Source: an uncultured Planctomycetaceae bacterium
GTDB taxonomy: Bacteria > Planctomycetota > Planctomycetia > Planctomycetales > Planctomycetaceae
Length of the DNA: 64,000 nt
Direction of reading: 5' to 3'
Assembly (NCBI GenBank): GCA_963813715.1
Contig: CAWFAK010000008.1
Location: forward strand, 128,001 to 192,000
How positions within the stretch are numbered: the stretch's first letter is position 1; each line of letters starts with the position of its first letter. Below are positions 6,870 to 58,446 of the stretch, piece by piece. The notes under the pieces were generated by a model. It did not search any database. It was not told the DNA's origin and saw nothing but the letters and a program-made list of their open reading frames with translations. A program made the position numbers and the translations under genes.

Positions 6870-8548
6870 CTATCGCGTGAAATTCAATCCCGGGTCGTTC
6901 GGCGGGCCGCCCACCATTTTGAAGGAGAAGCGATCCGGTCCCTCGGCGTTGACCTTACCGACCATCGTGCCGCCGTTGTCGTATTCCAGTACCAGGGTGG
7001 TGCCGGCCAGCTCGTACTTGCCGCCGAAGGACTGCGTCTTGTCGGGCCGGGCGTACTTCCAGTTGAACTTGCCGTCGGCGCCCAGCGACAGGTCGATGGT
7101 GCCGCCGCCCGCCGGGGGTGCCGCGTGCCACGACCCGGCCACGTTGGCTGGCGCCGTCAATTGGGTGTCGGACGGGGCGTTTGCCGGAGCTTCGGCCGTG
7201 GCCGGCGCGACGGCGGTGCCATTTCCATTGCCGTTGCCATTTCCGTTGTCAGGCGGCGCAATCATCGCCAGCAATTGTCGCGAGACTTGATCGTTGGGGG
7301 CGAGCTTCACCACCTGCTCGAACTGGCGGGCGGCAGGGTTCGGGTAACCCTCCGTCAAGTATTCGTAGCCCAGCAAAAAGTGCAGATCGGCCGAGTTATC
7401 GTTCTGCCGCACCGCGTCTTCCAGGGCGCGAAGCTGCTTGGTGTAGATATCGACGCTCGGATACAGGCTGCTCATCGTGGTCCAGTCCCAGCCGGGACCG
7501 ACGGACAGCACGGCGTAAAGCGTACCAGCCGCTTCCTTATAGCGGCCCATGGCGAAGAGGACGAGCGCGCGAAACTCGTGCAAGGGCGTGTCGCTCGGCG
7601 TCTTGGCGATGGCCGCATCGATCGTCGACAGGGCGGTCGGATAATCGCCTTTGTAGAAAGCGTCGCGGGCCTGGTCGCTCAGCGATACGGCACCCGTCAC
7701 CGAGGGATCGTTCGGATCGGGCAAGGCCGCGGTCGTCACGATGGGCTGACCGTAGTCGAGGGCCGGGTATTCGACGGTCGTCGGGGCGATGTAATACGGG
7801 TTGTAGTACGGATAGTAGCCGGTGTCGTAGAAGAGCGAACCAACGGCCCACGAGGTCAAGCCGAGGGCCGCGGTCCCGATGCCCCAACTCGCCCAGGGAT
7901 GGGAGTACCACCAGCCGTTGCCCCAATGCCCGTTCCAGTAGCCGTGATACCAGGAGTTGTGAACGTTGTGCCAATAATCGCTGCGATTGTTGATGCGATC
8001 GCCGCGGTTATTGATTCGGTCGCCCTGGTTATTGATCCGGTCGCCGCGGTTGTCGATGCGGTCGCCGCGGTTATCGATGCGATCCCGCGAGTCCGGTTGT
8101 TGACCCGGTTGTCCCGATTGGGGAGACGATCCCCGCCGTTATTGATCCGGTCGCCGGCATTGGGAAACCGGTTGCCGACATCGCCGCGATTCTCGATGTT
8201 CGGTCGATTGTTGGCGAAGTTCTGGCGGTTGGCCGCCGCCACCGAAGTTGCCGCCGTTACCGAAATTCCCGTTGAAGCCACCGCCGGCGCCGCCGCGGAA
8301 CCCGCCGCCGTTGACGTTGCCTCCGTTGAAGCTCCACCACCGCGGAAGCCGCCGCCGCCGTTGAAGCCGCCACCGCCGCCGCCTCCACGGAAACCGCCAC
8401 CGCCTCCTCCGCCGCCGCGGAACCACCGCCGCCCCCCGCGACCGATGGCCCAGACCTCGGTCACGGGCGCGGCCAACAGCGCGAAGCTCGTCAGGGAAAC
8501 ACCGGCAATCCGTTTGAAGGAAACGGTCAGGCTTGTCTTATCGCTCAT
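6870..8548 (-). CDS. secreted Gly-rich / repeat / TPR protein (frameshifted)
   Basis: Signal peptide, GGGFRGGG repeats, RI(N/D)NRGD repeats, a W/H/Y-rich segment (YYNPYY), then TPR-like helices (HEFRALVLFAMGRYKEAAGTLYAVLSVGPGWDW). The ORF is split across frames. Confidence 0.75.
7985..8160 (-). repeat. 21-bp coding tandem repeats (heptad RI[ND]N[RQ]GD)
   Basis: Repeated GGTCGCCGCGGTT(A/G)T(T/C)GAT units on the + strand. Confidence 0.8.
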
Positions 8549-18079: not shown

Positions 18080-18613
18080 TCGCGCAACCGCGCCGGCGTA
18101 GAAAACTGATCTTGTTTGAATCGCCCTCTTGTGGCTGAATGGAGAGAGCGGTTTTTTATTGCGCTGCGGAGAAGATCCGTAGGTCGAACGCGCGCGACGG
18201 GATCGCGTTGCCGGCGTTGATTGGGTGGGCTCGTGTTGCGCGGGAGCGGCGATTGTGGTTTCAGGTGCGCAGCGACATGAGCGAAATGTCATCCCAACCC
18301 CCAGTGGTGTGGTCAACTACTTTCACAAGGTAGTTGACCACGGAGATAGTTGACCACAGGCCGTGCGCCGGGGAACGGTTCCCCGCCAGGAACGAAAAAA
18401 GGGTTCCCTACTGGTGGTGGGGATCCTTTTTCACTAAACGGAGTCGAAAGATCGCCAGCAGCTGGACCCGTTCCCGAGGATGCCGACCCCAGCAACTGTC
18501 TCGGAACGGTGGGACAAGTGGACCCGGCGGGACACCGAAAAGTGGTCCCGGCGTGACGGGACTCCATGAATTGATATAAGGGGAAAGGGCAAAAGTGGTC
18601 CCACCGCGCGGGC
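18080..18613. repeat. modular non-coding repeat, copy A (intact; empty IS target site)
   Basis: About five blocks are shared, in the same order and inverted orientation, with 56838->56603 plus 52860->52430. Central palindrome GGTCAACTA-N11-TAGTTGACC at 18311-18339. Confidence 0.9.
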
Positions 18614-52154: not shown

Positions 52155-52429
52155 GTGCCGCGGACAGCTCTTGACCGACGCCGGGTCGTGGGTGCGTCTA
52201 CCGCGAGACATCAGGCGCGGGTGGCTGGGGTCAAGCCGCCAGGTGCGCCCCCAGTTCGGTTGCAGCACTGTCCCAATCAATCCCGTCCCGAGTCCCGTCC
52301 CGCCGTTCGAGTCCCGTGTTGCGAGTGGTTCCCGTCCCTGGCAAGAGAATCTGTGAGAGCCCGCGTTCCTTCGGGCTGAAACCCGGGGCCGTTGTCGGAC
52401 GCCTGTCTCGATCGCTGCGGGGCCGACTG

Positions 52430-52860
52430 GCCCGCGCGGCGGGACTACTTTTCCGTCTCCCCTTATATCAGTTCACGGAGTCCCGTCCCGCCGGGACCAC
52501 TTTTCGGAGTTCCGCCGGGACCACTTGTCCCACCGTTCCCAGACGGGTGGCTGGGTCAGCGTCTGCGCCAACGGGCCTGAGTGCCGGGTGCCACTGGCGG
52601 GGGCTTTGGCCCGCCAGTGTCTTCCCTCAAAATCGAGGCCGGTGCCCACGTTCTGAAACGCTGCCAATTGGGTGCATCGCTTCTCAAAGCCGCCGCTAGC
52701 GGCACCAATGCCTCGTCGGCTGCTGGGGGGAACTTTCCCTCCCTTAGTGAAAACGGATCCCCACCACCAGCAAGGACCCTTTTTTCGTTTCCAGCGAAGA
52801 TCTTTTCCCCATTGCGCGGCCTGTGGTCAACTTTCTGTGTGGTCAACTACCTTGTGAAAG
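52430..52860. repeat. modular non-coding repeat, copy B, left part (inverted relative to copy A)
   Basis: Matches the reverse complement of 18320-18613, e.g. CCCCTTATATCA.TTCA.GGAGTCCCGTC and CCACTTGTCCCACCGTTCC, with an extra ~130-bp internal segment. Confidence 0.9.
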
Positions 52861-52868
52861 GAATGGCA

Positions 52869-54260
52869 CTAGGTTAAGGAGTCGCCTCCGAATTCAGCCG
52901 ACGGTGGCACCGATTCCGGTGGACCTTCAAGTAGATCGTTCCAAGCCGGACGCCGTTTCTTCTTTCGTGGTTCCTGCCGCCCCGGACGATTGCCAACGCG
53001 GTGGGCTGCGACGGTCGTCAGGAAAGCAGAGTACAACGCCTCGCTTCCGCTTGCAGCCATCATCGCGGGCGTGAACGATTCGACGGCCTGCATCGCGCCC
53101 TTCACGCTCAACTGTCGCGGGGTGGTCCCGGTTCGCTTCGCCGACTCCGTCATTGTTCCGCGAAGTAAATTGTAGGCAAGCAAGTGGGCGAAGATTTCCT
53201 TCGTCACCATGTCGGGATTCTTGCAGCGGAGCACGTCGAGGTGCATCGACTGCTTGAGCGAACGCAGGTCTAGTTCACAATTCCACCGACGCCAGTACAG
53301 GTCGGATAATTCCTTTTGCGGGATCGACGGGTCGGTAATCGTGCTGATGACGATCGCCTTTTCGGTGCCGCCGCTGCGTCCCTCTATGTCTATCATGAAT
53401 TCGCGGACCAGCACCGTCTCCGGCATCTGAGTCGAAGGCCTCGCGGTCTGCCTTGTGATGGCATCGCGGCTTGTGCCATTCGACGATATGGTCATTCTCC
53501 CCAAGCCGAAATCCCTCGCTGAAATCGACCGTGCGGTTGCTGGTGGCTGACAGACACCATGTCGATGCCCCGCTGAGCGAGAGCGGCGACCGTGGAATAC
53601 GACGGATAGAAGCGATCGGCTACAAGAATGTTGCCCCGCTGCATCGTGTCGAGCATGCCGCGGAGAAGAGCCCCCTCGCCGGTCCCTTTGCCTTCGTGTG
53701 CTGCGAAAGCGAAATCGACGACCGCCCCCGTCGGCCAGACGAAATCATCGCCACGGCCCGCATGACCGGAAACCCGACGCCCTTTGCGTTGATGGACTTC
53801 GACTCTGTGGGAACGCCAATTGATTCTCAGGCGTGTCGGGCATCGAGAGGCCCGTGCCGTCAACCAGGAACACCTCCCGATCCCGCCAGTGCCACGAATC
53901 GTCGGCGGAGTCATGGACGTTGCGGCCGATCTCTTTCGCCAGCCGAACCATGACCGGCAACGGGAAGCGACTGCGGGCATCGCTGTAGCTGGCAGACGAT
54001 GCCGAGCAAGCGGGCAGGCCAGTTGCAACACGGTGGGCAAGGATGCGGGACACCGCCTCATTCAGCGATTTGTCCTGAGAGAGGCACTGTGACAGCCAAG
54101 CCCAAAGTGTGACCAGCGGGCAAAAGACACGCTGGCGATATTCGTGGCCCTCAGCCTCAAGCGATCGCAGGACGTGCTCGCGAGTCAGGATACGCCCGAA
54201 TGGCAAGCCGCTGTCGTTGGCGAATTTATCCCTGACGACGCCGAAGTCTTTGCGGGGCAT
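52869..54260 (-). CDS. IS4-family DDE transposase (several frameshifts)
   Basis: N-terminal RQRVFCPLVTLWAWLSQCL...SYSDARSR; LVDGT; VADRFY; Y(2)R(3)E(6)K signature YWRRWNCELDLRSLK. The stop codon lies inside the TIR. Confidence 0.9.
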
Positions 54261-54442
54261 TGTGGGTCCGCTTTCCCGTCGATGGGGCGAACCGCGTAGA
54301 ATCGTAGCTTGTCAGGGCTGGATTCTGGCGATTCGCCTGGTTTCTGTGTTCTCGCCCCGGTTGGATTGGCGTCCTTCCGGGGTTTTCTATTTCGCTCGAT
54401 TTATTGTACGGACAACAATTAGGTCATGCAAGGGAAAAGCGG

Positions 54443-54471
54443 TTGACACGCCGATTTTTTGTCCGTATTAT
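54443..54471 (+). promoter_or_regulatory. sigma70-type promoter with overlapping operator-like repeats
   Basis: TTGACA-17 nt-TATTAT. Related motifs TTGTACGGACAA (54404), TTGTCCGTA (54459) and TTGTACGGA (54471). Confidence 0.7.
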
Positions 54472-54478
54472 TGTACGG

Positions 54479-54667
54479 ATGAAAAAGAAGCGGGGGCGAC
54501 CACCCCTGCCGGAGAATCGGCGCAAGGGGGAGCGGATAGAGTTTCGGGCCGAGCCAAACGAGCGGGAAGCTTATGAGGCTGCCGCAAAGGCCGCGGGCCT
54601 GGAGCGCTCAGAATGGATGCGTGACCGACTTAATGCGGCCGTTCGCCGAGAATCAAAGAAGCCCTGA
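54479..54667 (+). CDS. ribbon-helix-helix-like DNA-binding protein (62 aa), probably leaderless
   Basis: MKKKRGRPP...RIEFRAEPNEREAYEAAAKAAGLERSEWMRDRL; the ATG is 7 nt after the -10 box. Confidence 0.75.
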   Translation: MKKKRGRPPLPENRRKGERIEFRAEPNEREAYEAAAKAAGLERSEWMRDRLNAAVRRESKKP

Positions 54668-55089
54668 ACGGCACTATCGGGAATCCACTTTCTTGTAGTA
54701 GGATCAACAGAATGGACGTGTCGGGAGTTGGACCCGAAACCGAATGCTTATAAGGCGACGGTCCCACCTGGCACGCCCGAGGACGGCGAATTGGAGGAGA
54801 CGGGGTACGATCCCGTAACCGCGGATTTAAAGTCCGTTGCTTTGCCGATTAAGCTACTCCCCCCTTTGCCGTTGCTCATCCACCCCGGACCAGCGGGTAC
54901 GATCCGCTGGTCCGGGGGGATTGACAAACTGAGCACTGGGCAAAGTCTTCCCAGACAACCCAAAGCACCTAGGATCTTATAGGCACTTCGCAAATCTTTG
55001 CCAGCAAAGGACTTCCAATCACCTTGCCGACAACGGTATCATGATACCGTTATTTACTGGTCGGTCAATACCGGAATTTTCCGGAGGGG

Positions 55090-56548
55090 GTGATCGGAGT
55101 GGACTTTCAGCCGCTAATCGCGCCGTACTCGCCTTGGCGCCAGCCGGAAAGCGAACGGATCTGGGACACCGAAGTGCCCAAATTCCGCCGGCCAATTTTT
55201 TCGCAGCTCAAAGAGGATCTGCAGTCAATCGAGCAAATCGTGTCGATCACCGGACCGCGACGCGTCGGAAAATCGACCCTGTTGCGCCAGCTGATTCAGT
55301 ACCTGCTCGCGGAAAAGCAGGTGGATCCGTCGCAGATCATCTACTACCAGTTCGATGATCCGGCCCTGTTCCGGAAGGGGGTGAACGGCGGGGATTTGCT
55401 CGAAAGCATGATGGAGCACCTGTGTCGAGCCAAGGCCCGCCCTGCCTATCTGTTTCTCGACGAAATCCAGACGCTGGACCGTTGGGAGCTTTATCTCAAG
55501 AAATTCTACGACCTGAAGTATCCGGTCCGCATGGTCGTGTCTGGCTCCGCGTCCAGCCCGATCTTCAAGAAGAGCCGCGAGAGCCTTCTGGGCCGAGTGA
55601 AGGATTATCGCGTACTGCCGTTCTCGTTCAGGGAATATTTGCTCCATGAACTGGAACCGTCGAGCCCGGCAATCTTGGAAGAAATGAAGGGCATCTATGA
55701 GGCTGGCGAAACCTTAAAGGGAATGTTGGTCCGGCATCCTGAGCACATCGACAGGCCATCGGCCCAAGTCCCCAGAATGTCCGAAGACCTGTGGCACCGA
55801 TCACAGGAGGCCCTGAAAACCTATTTGGTTGACGGAGGCTTTCCTGAAGTGTCAGCGCTTCAGACTAGCGACAAAAAGATTGAATACCTCTTTGAGAACC
55901 AGGTTAAAAAGGTCATTTTTGAAGACCTCGTTCTCGCAACCGAGTTTAGGAAGCCCGAACAGCTCAAAACGTTCTACGTGTCCCTTCTCGAAAAACCCGG
56001 ACAAGAGGTGAATCTAACATCACTGTCTCAGGACATTGGCGTCAATGTGCAGCAAATTGAGAAATACTTGCCCTTGCTCGAAATGACCGATCTGATCGGC
56101 CATGCGAGCAAATTTCGGCGATCGCCCATGCGTGTCCGGCAGGGCAACAGAAAGTACTATCTGACGGACTTGGCGCTCGAGAAACGCCGTCTTACGGATC
56201 GGACCGGAACTGCTGGAGAGCGACGAAATTCTCTCGATGTACGCCGAAAACCTCGTTTTTAATGCCCTGAAGAAATGGGTTGGGCCCATCGAAGTGGACT
56301 ATTATCGAGAGAACCAATACGAAGTCGACTTCATCGCTCACACGCGGATTTCGCTCTACTTCCCGATCGAAGTCAAATACCGCCGCTCTTGGGACAGGCG
56401 CGACCTAAAGGGCCTTCAGCACTTCAGGACTAGGAACCCATGCCACATGCCCTTTGTCGTGACACGAGATCACGACGATTTTGGATTCGAGGAAGATTCA
56501 AAAGTCGTTCGCGTTCCGCTGCTCTTGTTTCTTCTGATGTTCGACTGA
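55090..56548 (+). CDS. AAA+ ATPase (AAA_14/DUF4143-like) with C-terminal PD-(D/E)XK-like domain (frameshift ~56180)
   Basis: Walker A GPRRVGKST, Walker B FLDEIQ, SGSAS, ESLLGR, GGFPE, KYYLTD, then EVDFI...PIEVKY. Confidence 0.88.
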
Positions 56549-56602
56549 TTCACGCATGAACGCCCCCAATAATGGAGGCGACTCCTTAACCTAGTGCCAT
56601 TC

Positions 56603-56838
56603 CCTTGTGAAAGTAGTTGACCAGACCACAGGGGGTTGGGATGACATTTCGCTCATGTCGCTCGGCACCCGGCACCACGACGGGCGTCCTGCGCAACGCG
56701 AGTGCCGGTCGTGCGAAGCCGCCACGCAGATCGTCCATCTGCGGATCTTCCGCGGTGCAAGAAAACCTGCTCTCTCCATTCAGCCACAGCAGGCCAATTC
56801 AAACAAGATCAGTTTTCTACGCCGGGGCCGTTGCGCGA
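56603..56838. repeat. modular non-coding repeat, copy B, right part
   Basis: Reverse complement of 18080-18330, e.g. GGGGGTTGGGATGACATTTCGCTCATGTCGCT, CTCTCTCCATTCAGCCACA and ATTCAAACAAGATCAGTTTTCTACGCCGG. Confidence 0.9.
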
Positions 56839-57003
56839 AATAAAGGGTCTCTATTTGCGATCCGCCTGCGCGAGCACCCTCTTGTTTGGCAACCGAGTCT
56901 CGCCCAGAATGGCTCGCGTCAGCCGCAAGCCTCTCACCCTGCTGCGGCGCTCTCCAAACGGGGCGAAGGAGTCCTTTCACACGGCCTGATTTGGGCGATT
57001 GCC

Positions 57004-58446
57004 ATGAGCTACGACCTGATCTTCGCCAAGCCGATTGCCACAATTCCCAAAGAGCAAGAGGACGAAGTCTTCCGGGCTCTAACAAAGGACAATCCCGGCG
57101 GCCTGTTTGAGCCGCTGCCCCTCGAAAAGATCAACCAGGCTCTCATCGAACTCTTCGAAGACTTCGAGCCCGCGACCGGCACGGGCATCGAGGACGGCAA
57201 CGGCTCGGCCGAAGTCGGGCATTCGGCCTACTATTTCTGGTTCAGTTTTTACGGCGACATCGACGAGATGACGGACCGGATCGTCGAAATCTTTCGGCGG
57301 TTCGACTGCCCGGTCTTCGATCCGCAGTGCAACGGACTGCAGCCGCTCGATAATCCGTGGGGCCGGCCGCCCGGGAGCGGCGCTCTCGGATCCGGATTTC
57401 AGAAGGCGTTCGCCCGCGAGCTGGAGAAAGTGCAAGCACAGGTCGCCGCGCAAAAGCCGGAAGTGCGCGAGACGCTCGAACGCGAGTTGGCCGATCTTCA
57501 AGAGAAAGCCGCCGTCCTGAAGAAAAAACAAGACGAGAGCCGCGCCAAAGCCGCCGCTGCTCGCCAGGCGGAAGAGCAGAAGCGCGAAGCGGCGGATCGC
57601 AAGGCGAATCCAAAGCAGTATGAACTCATCGCGCAAATCGAGCAGGAGTGCGCCGGCGGCCGTTGGCAACGCCTGGGGATGACCGCGAAGCATTGCGGCG
57701 AGACGATCTACTATTCCCCTCAGCTGACGTCGGAAAGCGAGCACCGTTCCTCGCTGCCGATCACCGCGAGTCGACGACTCGTGGAGCTGAAGTTCCTCGA
57801 AGCCATCCCGTCGAGCCAGCCGAGTTACGACTCAGTTGCGGTCGCCCGACGAACCGCGGCGATGGCGGTGAACTACTTCTTCGGGGACTGGGAGGAAACC
57901 ATCCCGCGAAGAACGCTCCTGGGGATGAAGTTCGACAAAGTCCCTCTGACAAAAGAGAAAATGCGCAAGGCGTCGAATTGGATCGAGCCCTATCGGGAAG
58001 GCTTGCTGTTGGCGCTCTATGCCGATGACGAGCCGTCGTTTCAAAGGCTGATCCAGTGGCCCGACACCGACCTGCCGGTCGACGACGGGATCTGGAACCT
58101 GACCGCGGCCGACAACCAGGCTCACATCGCGCTGGCGGCGATCTTGCGCGGAGAGCCGAAGGCGAAGGTCGACCAGCTCATCACGGCCCCTCTCAGGAGC
58201 GGTCGCAAACGAGCGGTCGCCTTCGCGTCGGCTGCGCGGGCCTTCGCCGATGACGACGCCGCGGCCTTCGCGAAGTCTCTGAAGGAACTGAGCAATTTGT
58301 ATCTCAAGAAGCCGCCGCTCCTCGTGAACGCTCAGCGTCCCGAACTGCACGTGGACGGATCCCTTCTCTGGCACCTCGGTCTGCGCAAGAAGTTCGCGCT
58401 GCCCGAGCTTCCGGAACGGAATCTCGATTTGATCCTCCGCCGTTGA
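57004..58446 (+). CDS. hypothetical protein (small N-terminal domain, coiled coil, helical C-terminal domain)
   Basis: Long ORF with strong codon bias; MSYDL...VFDPQ domain, E/K/A-rich coiled coil, helical C-terminus. Confidence 0.75.
   Translation: MSYDLIFAKPIATIPKEQEDEVFRALTKDNPGGLFEPLPLEKINQALIELFEDFEPATGTGIEDGNGSAEVGHSAYYFWFSFYGDIDEMTDRIVEIFRRFDCPVFDPQCNGLQPLDNPWGRPPGSGALGSGFQKAFARELEKVQAQVAAQKPEVRETLERELADLQEKAAVLKKKQDESRAKAAAARQAEEQKREAADRKANPKQYELIAQIEQECAGGRWQRLGMTAKHCGETIYYSPQLTSESEHRSSLPITASRRLVELKFLEAIPSSQPSYDSVAVARRTAAMAVNYFFGDWEETIPRRTLLGMKFDKVPLTKEKMRKASNWIEPYREGLLLALYADDEPSFQRLIQWPDTDLPVDDGIWNLTAADNQAHIALAAILRGEPKAKVDQLITAPLRSGRKRAVAFASAARAFADDDAAAFAKSLKELSNLYLKKPPLLVNAQRPELHVDGSLLWHLGLRKKFALPELPERNLDLILRR

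Follow-up and report, generated by a model that had tools for sequence, protein, structure and literature searches.

What kind of mobile unit has entered an intergenic palindrome of an uncultured soil bacterium of the Planctomycetaceae, and why does it contain a tRNA gene whose anticodon reads a stop codon? The locus lies in a 64,000-nucleotide stretch of DNA, here called the window, which comprises positions 128,001 to 192,000 of contig CAWFAK010000008.1 in assembly GCA_963813715.1 (G000:C8:128001-192000 in our numbering); the host genome measures 7.49 Mb in 18 contigs and has 63% G+C. The unit itself occupies window positions 52861-56602 and is, as read directly from the sequence, an IS4-family transposon of 3,742 bp with perfect ends and an 11-bp target duplication. 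With moderate confidence we read it as a recently inserted member of a Planctomycetota clade of IS4 transposons that keeps a slot for a decoding RNA, the slot being occupied in this copy by a nonsense suppressor.

Boundaries, insertion site and empty allele

The two terminal inverted repeats (TIRs) of the element agree at every position, as do all 11 positions of the two duplication copies (Table 1). The 19-nt core of the end occurs at two places only in the window when up to 3 mismatches are allowed (0 expected, 100 shuffles), and neither the repeat search nor the 19-nt core scan of the window revealed a further end-like sequence inside the element. The transposase stop codon, TAG at 52869-52871 on the minus strand, falls within the TIR. 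The element is single-copy in the 7.49-Mb genome. The target that is reconstituted at the insertion is the reverse complement of 18311-18339, i.e. a filled and an unoccupied form of the same palindrome are found within one window.

Public contigs were mapped on 52500-57000. A contig of 324 nt from soil run X2 (record 11) follows the window over 52596-52849 with 1 mismatch and then over 56603-56672 with none. Its joint omits 3,753 bp, with 11 letters shared at both sides, and retains one copy of the loop; in other words, it is the exact empty site. The contigs of run X3 have the identical joint from 52849 to 56603 with a single 11-mer. Since the empty site is present in soil-metagenome contigs and the ends and the duplication are perfect, the insertion is recent and polymorphic, i.e. 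not fixed in the population. In the manner of a transporter insertion sequence (IS), the 3,742 bp are enclosed as one unit by the duplication and are entirely absent from the empty allele.

A first-pass annotation, made from the sequence alone, had described perfect 29-bp TIRs around 3,742 bp with an 11-bp duplication, a regenerated target equal to the reverse complement of 18311-18339, and the absence of a second TIR near the transposase start; each of these statements is upheld by the reading given above. It had also considered the element to be recently active, with which the perfect ends and duplication and the X2 and X3 contigs agree. Two of the searches that it proposed, for other copies of the end in the genome and for DNA with the empty site, led to the single copy and to the soil contigs, respectively.

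The tRNA gene and the RNA slot of the transposon family

The Rfam model RF00005 matches the tRNA gene of the element over its full length (1-71) with 61.3 bits, the gathering score being 29, and 27:43 is the sole non-standard pair. The molecule is a 7/5 cloverleaf with the pairs G1:C72, G2:C71, G3:U70 and G4:C69, with A73 and with the T-loop AUCGUAC; CCA is not encoded. The closest of the 86 other tRNAs of the genome shares 55 of 72 nt, so there is no close copy, and an exact scan of the metagenome contigs with the 3' half of the gene gave 0 matches. The acceptor stem GGGGGAG/CUCCUCC with A73 equals the stem of the host tRNA-Ala in 6 of 7 pairs, G3:U70 included, and the anticodon arm is similar to that of tRNA-Lys(UUU). 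The combination expected of an alanine-accepting tRNA, G3:U70 (its role after PMC5389517) with A73, is present in the window tRNA, and it is kept in the homologue from the related element of genome G002. This homologue (74 nt) retains G1-G4, U70 and A73, has a canonical T-loop and carries the anticodon UCA; its acceptor stem differs from that of the window by a compensatory change, A6:U67 to U6:A67.

Two further relatives have tRNAs with a long variable arm and G73, i.e. of the serine type, in the same slot: L040 with the anticodon UCA (59.6 bits) and L028 with UUA (48.6 bits). All four nonsense anticodons therefore stand on alanine- or serine-type bodies, and alanine and serine are two systems whose synthetases ignore the anticodon (PMC11028032). 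Allo-tRNAs with G3:U70 inserted alanine at a stop codon in E. coli (Mukai et al., PMC5389517). From these features we infer that the window tRNA is a predicted alanine-inserting ochre suppressor.

The family to which the element belongs was delimited by a protein-guided scan that gave 80 loci, Planctomycetota by their record titles save a few short contigs labelled otherwise. They comprise 29 close loci (L022-L050) with at least 60% identity and 51 distant loci with ~42%. Elements of same-genus genomes are 83% identical over the block of transposase, ribbon-helix-helix (RHH) gene and tRNA. Both ends and a 10-12-bp duplication were found in 17 of the 29 close loci, with element sizes of 3.0-6.8 kb; in these 17 the transposase adjoins one end, and 1.5-5 kb lie between its start and the other end. 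One relative (L036) has a third, inner end. At least 17 of the 29 close loci have a divergent RHH homologue upstream of their transposase, and so, as judged by eye, do L042 and L028 in addition. In the layout of the clade, one end is followed by the DDE transposase, the divergent RHH gene, a tRNA or tRNA-like gene that has the strand of the transposase, variable cargo and the other end. Because 17 relatives share this layout, we regard the architecture as ancestral and the carriage of cargo as a family trait.

The same family-wide layout rules out a nested insertion of the cargo. A composite origin, in which the far end would be the relic of a second IS, was likewise rejected: the similarity of the two ends stops at 29 bp, there is no inner end, and the layout is again that of the family. 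Both possibilities had been named beforehand as grounds for giving up the cargo interpretation; neither holds, as 17 of the 29 relatives have the same design.

The slot is most often occupied by another kind of RNA. In 13 of the 29 close loci it contains an RNA of ~92 nt with the loop CUUAUAA, on the transposase strand and just past the antisense RHH gene. A 9/3 cloverleaf with a long variable arm leaves 91% of the cells paired, as compared with 46-61% when the pairing partners are slid, and 12 pairs change on both sides, a result that none of 500 shuffles attained. Rfam sees in it a weak look-alike of tRNA-Sec (26 bits). The 9/3 arrangement and the long variable arm are those of allo-tRNAs, and by its sequence and predicted fold the slot RNA matches the allo-tRNA(UAU) group of Mukai et al. 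2017. The window tRNA, with its 7/5 arrangement and a variable region of 4 nt, is not an allo-tRNA, and our model R1 of the slot RNA gives no match on the window element, nor does it match in the 51 distant loci. ARAGORN at lowered thresholds gave mostly false calls and served as a lead only.

The association of this RNA with transposases extends beyond the IS4 family. In the genome of the window, R1 finds four copies. All four have an IS1-like transposase next to them (62 bits on NF033558, less than the cut-off of that profile), and two have an RHH gene as a further neighbour. A cluster of three allo-tRNA(UAU)-like RNAs within ~8 kb, each followed by an IS1-like transposase, was seen at G000:C15:107236-115463. 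Among the relatives' loci with the slot RNA, a transposase segment is present in 11 of the 12 fetched. Among the metagenome contigs with the 21-nt RNA core, 53 loci extend for at least 600 nt downstream, and 42 of these have a transposase homologue; most of the 42 are IS1-like and 3 are IS4-like, usually with an RHH gene in between. The anticodon UAU is kept in at least 69 of 79 readable loops of the metagenome contigs.

The codon that would correspond to UAU is conspicuous in the transposases themselves. Of 31 close homologues, 29 use ATA for the first isoleucine of the IS4-like motif VREFxIxIE and 17 for the second, the neighbouring codons varying freely; here and below, the ATA counts are taken over kin that are not independent. 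Five other conserved isoleucine columns contain 1 ATA in 86 codons (20 intact genes), and ATA makes up ~5% of the isoleucine codons in long frames and 2.2 per 1000 codons in the genome. In the IS1-like transposases beside the RNA, two conserved isoleucine columns are ATA in 17/17 and 18/24, respectively, and a third in 0/21. The second ATA of the IS4-like motif is found in 10 of 13 copies with the UAU RNA versus 3 of 13 full-context copies without that RNA. ATA codons are not conserved in the RHH genes. Distant homologues have valine or isoleucine at both ATA positions, so a serine-type reading would be disruptive there, and the sign of the effect could go either way.

Table 1. Features of the element and of its target in window coordinates.
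Feature	Position	Strand	Basis or remark
Left palindrome arm GGTCAACTA	52841-52849	.	read directly
Left copy of the 11-bp target duplication CCTTGTGAAAG	52850-52860	.	entire palindrome loop
Terminal inverted repeat GAATGGCACTAGGTTAAGGAGTCGCCTCC	52861-52889	+	adjoins the transposase 3' end; sequence reading, repeat search
IS4-family DDE transposase	52869-54260	-	split over several frames in this assembly
ATA-GAC-ATA, conserved pair of rare isoleucine codons in the transposase	53385-53393	-	
Divergent control region	54261-54478	.	
Ribbon-helix-helix protein (NikA/MbpA/VapB-like), 62 aa	54479-54667	+	conserved core gene of the transposon family
tRNA gene, 72 nt, anticodon UUA (reads UAA) at position 34	54792-54863	-	ARAGORN, Rfam RF00005
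Hairpin with a 14-bp stem, just upstream of the tRNA	54871-54929	-	7-nt loop AUCGUAC, equal to the tRNA T-loop
Perfect 20-bp palindrome AACGGTATCATGATACCGTT	55032-55051		overlaps a promoter-like site (55068-55041, minus strand) facing the tRNA
Cargo gene, AAA_14 + DUF4143 ATPase	55090-56548	+	one frameshift near 56185
Distal terminal inverted repeat	56574-56602	-	exact reverse complement of GAATGGCACTAGGTTAAGGAGTCGCCTCC, 29/29; sequence reading, repeat search
Right copy of the target duplication CCTTGTGAAAG	56603-56613	.	
Right palindrome arm TAGTTGACC	56614-56622	.	
Unoccupied paralogous palindrome GGTCAACTA-CTTTCACAAGG-TAGTTGACC	18311-18339		same arms and loop, reverse orientation

The hairpin upstream of the tRNA gene has a counterpart in G002 (L017 ~8440-8475), where the hairpin loop and the tRNA T-loop are both UUCGAGC.

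Target choice, transposase frames and cargo

The palindrome family has 8 members in the genome, 7 intact and 1 interrupted, and belongs to a mosaic intergenic repeat in which it forms a single module; the other modules have ~20-30 copies. It falls short of the more than 100 extragenic palindromes per genome that characterize repetitive extragenic palindromes (REP) and bacterial interspersed mosaic elements (BIME), i.e. the target is REP-like in form and not in abundance. We note that the intergenic region around the insertion includes repeat modules at 52429-52539 (~30 genome copies) and 52699-52811 (~20 copies) and has long paralogues at C5:350348-351033 and at window 18080-18613. Translations of the repeats in 52429-52811 resemble conserved open reading frames (ORFs); these repeats are probably non-coding.

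Two related genomes have an element in the loop of the same palindrome. In G003 an element of 4,464 bp, with CTTTCACTAGG duplicated, is located between GGTCACCTA and TAGTTGACC, at a site that is not orthologous to that of the window, and its orientation is opposite to the repeat flanks. In G002:C10 an element of 5,124 bp occupies the orthologous site, the left flank being 94% identical over 2,664 nt and the right one 85% over 2,502 nt. This element is internally flipped with respect to that of the window, has other cargo and is bounded by a duplication of CCTCGTGAATG. Because the duplications are identical within each genome and different between genomes, the three insertions are separate recent events, with the arm/loop borders in common. 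In G002:C10 a third loop-like copy (T followed by CCTCGTGAAAG) precedes the right arm, giving CCTCGTGAATG, T and CCTCGTGAAAG in tandem (L017 11139-11162); it resembles a footprint left by an element that had entered this palindrome before and been excised again. Relatives more distant than these have other duplications, many with a central TAG. A loop preference confined to the closest sub-lineage, i.e. the window, G002:C10 and G003, is supported by these comparisons of sequence.

Fixed targets are also found in a second IS4-family element of the genome, which is cargo-less, measures 1,512-1,513 bp and has six copies outside the window (G000:C5:443950-445479, C5:1088343-1089872, C8:69254-70766, C11:44405-45934, C16:394040-395552 and C17:682375 onward). 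Its transposase is 28% identical to that of the window element, its end tips are nearly identical (GAATGGCACTAACTTAAGG), and its target duplication is a fixed 11-mer, TGTCCCGTCCC, that belongs to another intergenic repeat. In one of its copies the flanks are inverted rather than direct, as would result if copies had recombined with each other.

The transposase of the window is recognized in pieces. The profile NF033592 is matched by 54260-53745 at positions 5-132, by ~54061-53492 at 148-204 and by 53504-52869 at 232-332, with 70.6, 27 and 75.8 bits, respectively; each piece is below the cut-off of 115 because the gene is split. The intact G002 homologue scores 196.5 bits against the same cut-off. 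Its triad is D134-78-D213-112-E326, within the spacing D(60-110)D(100-150)E of the IS4 family, and the motif Y-2-R-3-E-6-K is present as YWRRWNCELDLRSIK from residue 319 of the G002 protein and as YWRRWNCELDLRSLK in the window ORF 52869-53504. The DDE motifs of G002 recur in the window copy, where they are distributed over different frames. The duplication is, as in the IS4 family, about one helix turn long (11 bp in the window, 10-12 bp in 17 relatives); these hallmarks, i.e. DDE spacing, YREK and duplication, are those given by De Palmenaer et al. 2008 (PMC2266710).

The splitting of the gene probably does not reflect its natural state. Single ORFs of 458 aa encode the homologues in G002 and G003, and compared with four homologues the window has a single extra base near each of 53539, 53429 and 52936, as well as a +2/+3/+2 stretch in 53737-53803. 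Relative to the window, the contigs of run X1 that cover the element show 0-4 substitutions and 1-3 single-base gaps. Record 6 is free of substitutions over 54170-54323 and has its 3 gaps at 54264, 54282 and 54306; record 3 (53431-53558) has one gap; record 8 (56158-56341), which includes the interval of the ATPase frameshift, has 0 substitutions and one single-base gap. At 54282 and 54306, two of the three gaps listed, G002 and G003 also lack the base. Since every difference between X1 and the window is an extra base in the window, the frameshifts of the transposase and of the ATPase are probably consensus errors of the assembly, and the genes would be intact. Broken frames were also seen in G002, namely in a methylase gene of the MT-A70 kind in the cargo of G002:C10 (L017 7337-7851, three frames) and in the orthologue of the flanking gene at window 56617-58446, which is split; related assemblies seem to hold indel errors too.

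The control region between the transposase and the RHH gene contains a sigma-70-like promoter, TTGACA-17-TATTAT, at 54443-54471 on the plus strand, flanked by TTGTACGGA / TACGGACAA repeats. A segment of 108 bp (54279-54386) is 84% identical to G000:C15:107627-107732 (L002 1501-1606), upstream of an IS1-like transposase, at a locus where an RHH gene in divergent orientation and an allo-tRNA(UAU)-like RNA are likewise present. On sequence similarity, different transposase families thus seem to have this control module in common. A type II toxin-antitoxin pair was considered for the RHH gene and rejected: no second ORF is linked with it, and its neighbour is the convergent tRNA. The RHH protein and the tRNA do not form a classical toxin-antitoxin system either, because there is no protein toxin and a repressor cannot neutralise a tRNA that has already been made.

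The ATPase of the cargo matches the PADLOC profile PDC-S01 with E = 2.2e-52 over profile positions 12-300, and the part after the frameshift covers 315-407 of 412; it is a candidate defence gene of the PDC-S01 type. The window RHH protein, the third of the window ORFs scanned besides the two ATPase parts, has no match in PADLOC. When 105 cargo ORFs from the 17 elements were scanned for families, most had none. The named matches are HNH_2, P63C, an M78 peptidase with a helix-turn-helix (HTH), DUF3800 (twice), an SMC-like ATPase, an SDH-type protease, DUF7689, an N6/N4 methylase, DUF6941 (twice) and GmrSD_N. In PADLOC, 5 of 15 cargo proteins from relatives gave a match (PDC-M04A, PDC-S46, type II methylase, HNH and, weakly, capP). 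With these 5 proteins and the window ATPase, the cargo is often defence-like.

These results refine the first-pass annotation in several respects. Its assignment to the IS4 family is confirmed by the NF033592 scores, D-78-D-112-E and Y-2-R-3-E-6-K, and divergent passenger genes are indeed present between the transposase start and the far TIR. The extent of ~1.4 kb that it gave for the transposase is right (52869-54260); the split frames had escaped notice. Passenger DNA had been recognized as such; the tRNA gene had been overlooked, as had the place of the RHH gene in the conserved core. Its suggestion that the element targets this repeat family is retained for the closest sub-lineage only, as other family members insert elsewhere.

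Mechanism, rival explanations and known systems

In the mechanism that we propose, the transposase would bind the ~19-29-bp ends and move the whole 3.7-kb unit by IS4-type cut-and-paste, and the target would be cut with a stagger of 11 bp at both arm/loop borders of GGTCAACTA-N11-TAGTTGACC in the mosaic intergenic repeat. The RHH protein would repress the divergent promoters, and the tRNA would be transcribed from the promoter-like site at 55068-55041. Alanyl-tRNA synthetase (AlaRS) would charge this tRNA via G3:U70 and A73, ignoring the anticodon, and alanine would be inserted at UAA and, by wobble, at UAG. The slot would be the place of the family for a private decoding RNA; its usual occupant would be an allo-tRNA(UAU)-like RNA matched to the AUA pair of the transposase, a match that may act as a codon-level gate on transposase synthesis. 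In four copies, that of the window included, a nonsense suppressor would have taken over the slot. We offer only tentatively the wider proposal that IS4-like and IS1-like transposons carry a private tRNA as a mobile codon gate and that some slots have been refilled with alanine or serine suppressors that alter the reading of the code.

Several observations weigh against the reading of the element as a recent transposon with a suppressor in its slot. No read or contig covers 54765-55066, RNA run X7 included, so the anticodon rests on the assembly, and TTTAAA versus TTTTAA is a type of run-boundary error that is possible in a noisy consensus, in an assembly that is error-prone here. The short variable region of the tRNA (4 nt) and its T-loop with A54 and U58 are unusual. 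No element gene needs suppression, and there are no convincing longer genes when TAA is taken as sense in the window element; the same is true of the G002 cargo re-read with TGA as sense. A match between the suppressor anticodon and the stop codons of the element was considered and rejected, as the stops of the transposase and of the RHH gene do not follow the anticodon: the transposase stop is the TAA or TAG of the conserved end CCTTAAGCTAGTGCC in 12 of 12 relatives checked (L022-L050) and in the window, never TGA, and the RHH stop codons vary among relatives. When six allo-tRNA(UAU) species were put to an amber test in E. coli, none was active, and it was suggested that they are unused in translation (Mukai et al., PMC5389517). 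The element is single-copy with the transposase and ATPase frames broken as assembled, and real breaks would make it immobile. As for the target, the preference rests on 3 insertions, 2 of them at one orthologous locus, in a palindrome family of only 8 members, and neither the G002:C1 copy nor any of the ends found in G004, G005, G008 and G009 lies in this palindrome.

The explanation that competes most directly with a decoding role, and which we consider rather unlikely, is that the slot RNA is structural or regulatory: a tRNA-shaped RNA with a strong promoter of its own, upstream of the transposase and antisense to the RHH gene, would serve as a signal for processing by RNase P/Z or would switch between RHH and transposase by an antisense or read-through effect. 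The invariant geometry would suit it, as the RNA in every case shares the direction of the transposase and converges with the RHH gene, with allo-type copies 0-3 nt from the RHH stop, and one RNA-RHH module serves two unrelated transposase families. The inactivity of the allo-tRNA(UAU) species in E. coli (PMC5389517) and the lack of an element gene in need of suppression point the same way. Anticodons for rare codons and stops (AUA, UAA, UGA) might then survive as the least harmful ones if the RNA is charged, and ATA is indeed rare in the genome and TAA the rarest stop in its long frames. UGA, however, is the commonest stop here, and UCA is therefore no harmless anticodon. Moreover, at least 69 of 79 metagenomic copies retain UAU alongside covarying stems, ATA is fixed at specific isoleucine sites in both linked transposase families, and all four suppressors keep alanine or serine identity sets, with one compensatory acceptor pair.

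The element could also be regarded as a decaying relic in which the transposase and the ATPase are true pseudogenes, the tRNA is a degenerating passenger and no part functions today. Its single copy, the unusual T-loop and variable region of the tRNA and the frame-breaking insertions (at least 4 in the transposase and 1 in the ATPase, none in long single-base runs) would fit such decay, which we nevertheless hold to be improbable: the ends and the duplication are perfect, and the empty allele stands in near-identical DNA. Over 151 and 183 nt the X1 contigs show no substitution against the window and yet have single bases fewer, also in the interval of the ATPase frameshift, and the relatives side with X1 at two of the three listed gaps; differences that are all insertions in the window fit consensus error better than natural decay. 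About equally improbable is the absence of any target choice, with the window and G002 elements descending from one old insertion and that of G003 being a coincidence in repeat-rich intergenic DNA. The orthologous sites, the 83% identity of the element core between the window and G002:C10, which is near the 85% of the right flank, and the quite different sequences in which other family members lie could be so explained. However, the G002:C10 element has the opposite internal orientation and different cargo, the duplication pair is identical within each genome and differs between genomes (CCTTGTGAAAG and CCTCGTGAATG), an extra loop copy resembles an excision footprint, and an empty allele exists. 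In addition, the G003 insertion is at a non-orthologous copy and respects exactly the same arm/loop borders, and a fixed 11-bp target is likewise seen for the second IS, whose end tips are nearly identical.

If the element is a recent transposon with a suppressor in its decoding slot, a suppressor tRNA is a very unusual cargo for so small a transposon. Provided that the link between the slot RNA and the ATA codons is functional, it would give a role and an experimental handle to the abundant and unexplained allo-tRNA(UAU) class, it would represent a new mode of transposition control, and small DDE transposons would be shown to be able to carry nonsense suppressors and candidate anti-phage genes between genomes. 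The loop-specific, orientation-free insertion into 11 bp may also serve as a site-selective integration tool.

Among known systems, the IS231-type elements with MIC231 (PMC2266710) are alike in belonging to the IS4 family, in DDE and YREK, in a duplication of about one helix turn and in passenger DNA between the left end and the transposase. This modular passenger layout is reported by De Palmenaer et al. 2008 as unseen in the IS4 subgroups other than the IS231-type. The end tips are GAATGG here and CAT in IS231 and ISH8, as quoted in the same source (PMC2266710). Unlike in the IS231-type, the passenger layout is universal in the Planctomycetota clade, the RHH gene and the tRNA slot are conserved, and the cargo is defence-like.

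Palindromes are also the targets of IS1397, and the insertion sequences that target REP belong to other families (IS110, IS3). The site-specific insertion of ISPpu9, ISPpu10, ISPa11, ISPsy8 and ISRm19/22 into repeated extragenic palindromes (Tobes and Pareja 2006, PMC1525189) resembles what we see here. The differences are that the enzyme is of the IS4 family, that the whole 11-nt loop is duplicated and that the palindrome has ~8 copies, not hundreds.

Nonsense-suppressor tRNAs are carried by stop-codon-recoded phages. In our case the carrier is a 3.7-kb DDE transposon, and no in-frame stops were found in the element genes. A translational gate made of a rare codon in a GC-rich genome and a dedicated tRNA is exemplified by bldA tRNA-Leu(UAA) and the rare TTA codons of Streptomyces. 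In contrast to bldA, the tRNA-like gene described here travels with the gated gene on a mobile element, its identity looks serine-like and not cognate, and the gate could be negative as well as positive.

The slot RNA of the relatives and the allo-tRNA(UAU) of soil Acidobacteria (Mukai et al., PMC5389517) have in common the 9/3 arrangement, the long variable arm, the Sec-like D arm, the anticodon UAU and, possibly, a five-way junction. That paper (PMC5389517) mentions toxin-antitoxin genes and an ORF related to transposons in the vicinity. The window tRNA differs from these in being canonical (7/5), and the hosts here are Planctomycetota, a phylum with 0 mentions in PMC5389517; a fixed place for the RNA in bounded transposons of two families, with matching ATA codons, is not described there either. 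In the literature searched we found no paper on transposon-borne suppressor tRNAs in bacteria or on a link between allo-tRNA(UAU) and transposase ATA codons, and supplementary figures S5 and S6 of PMC5389517 may show related loci. Within the literature searched, the cargo-carrying IS and the palindromic target are thus of known kinds, whereas the conserved tRNA slot, its suppressor occupants and the ATA link are new.

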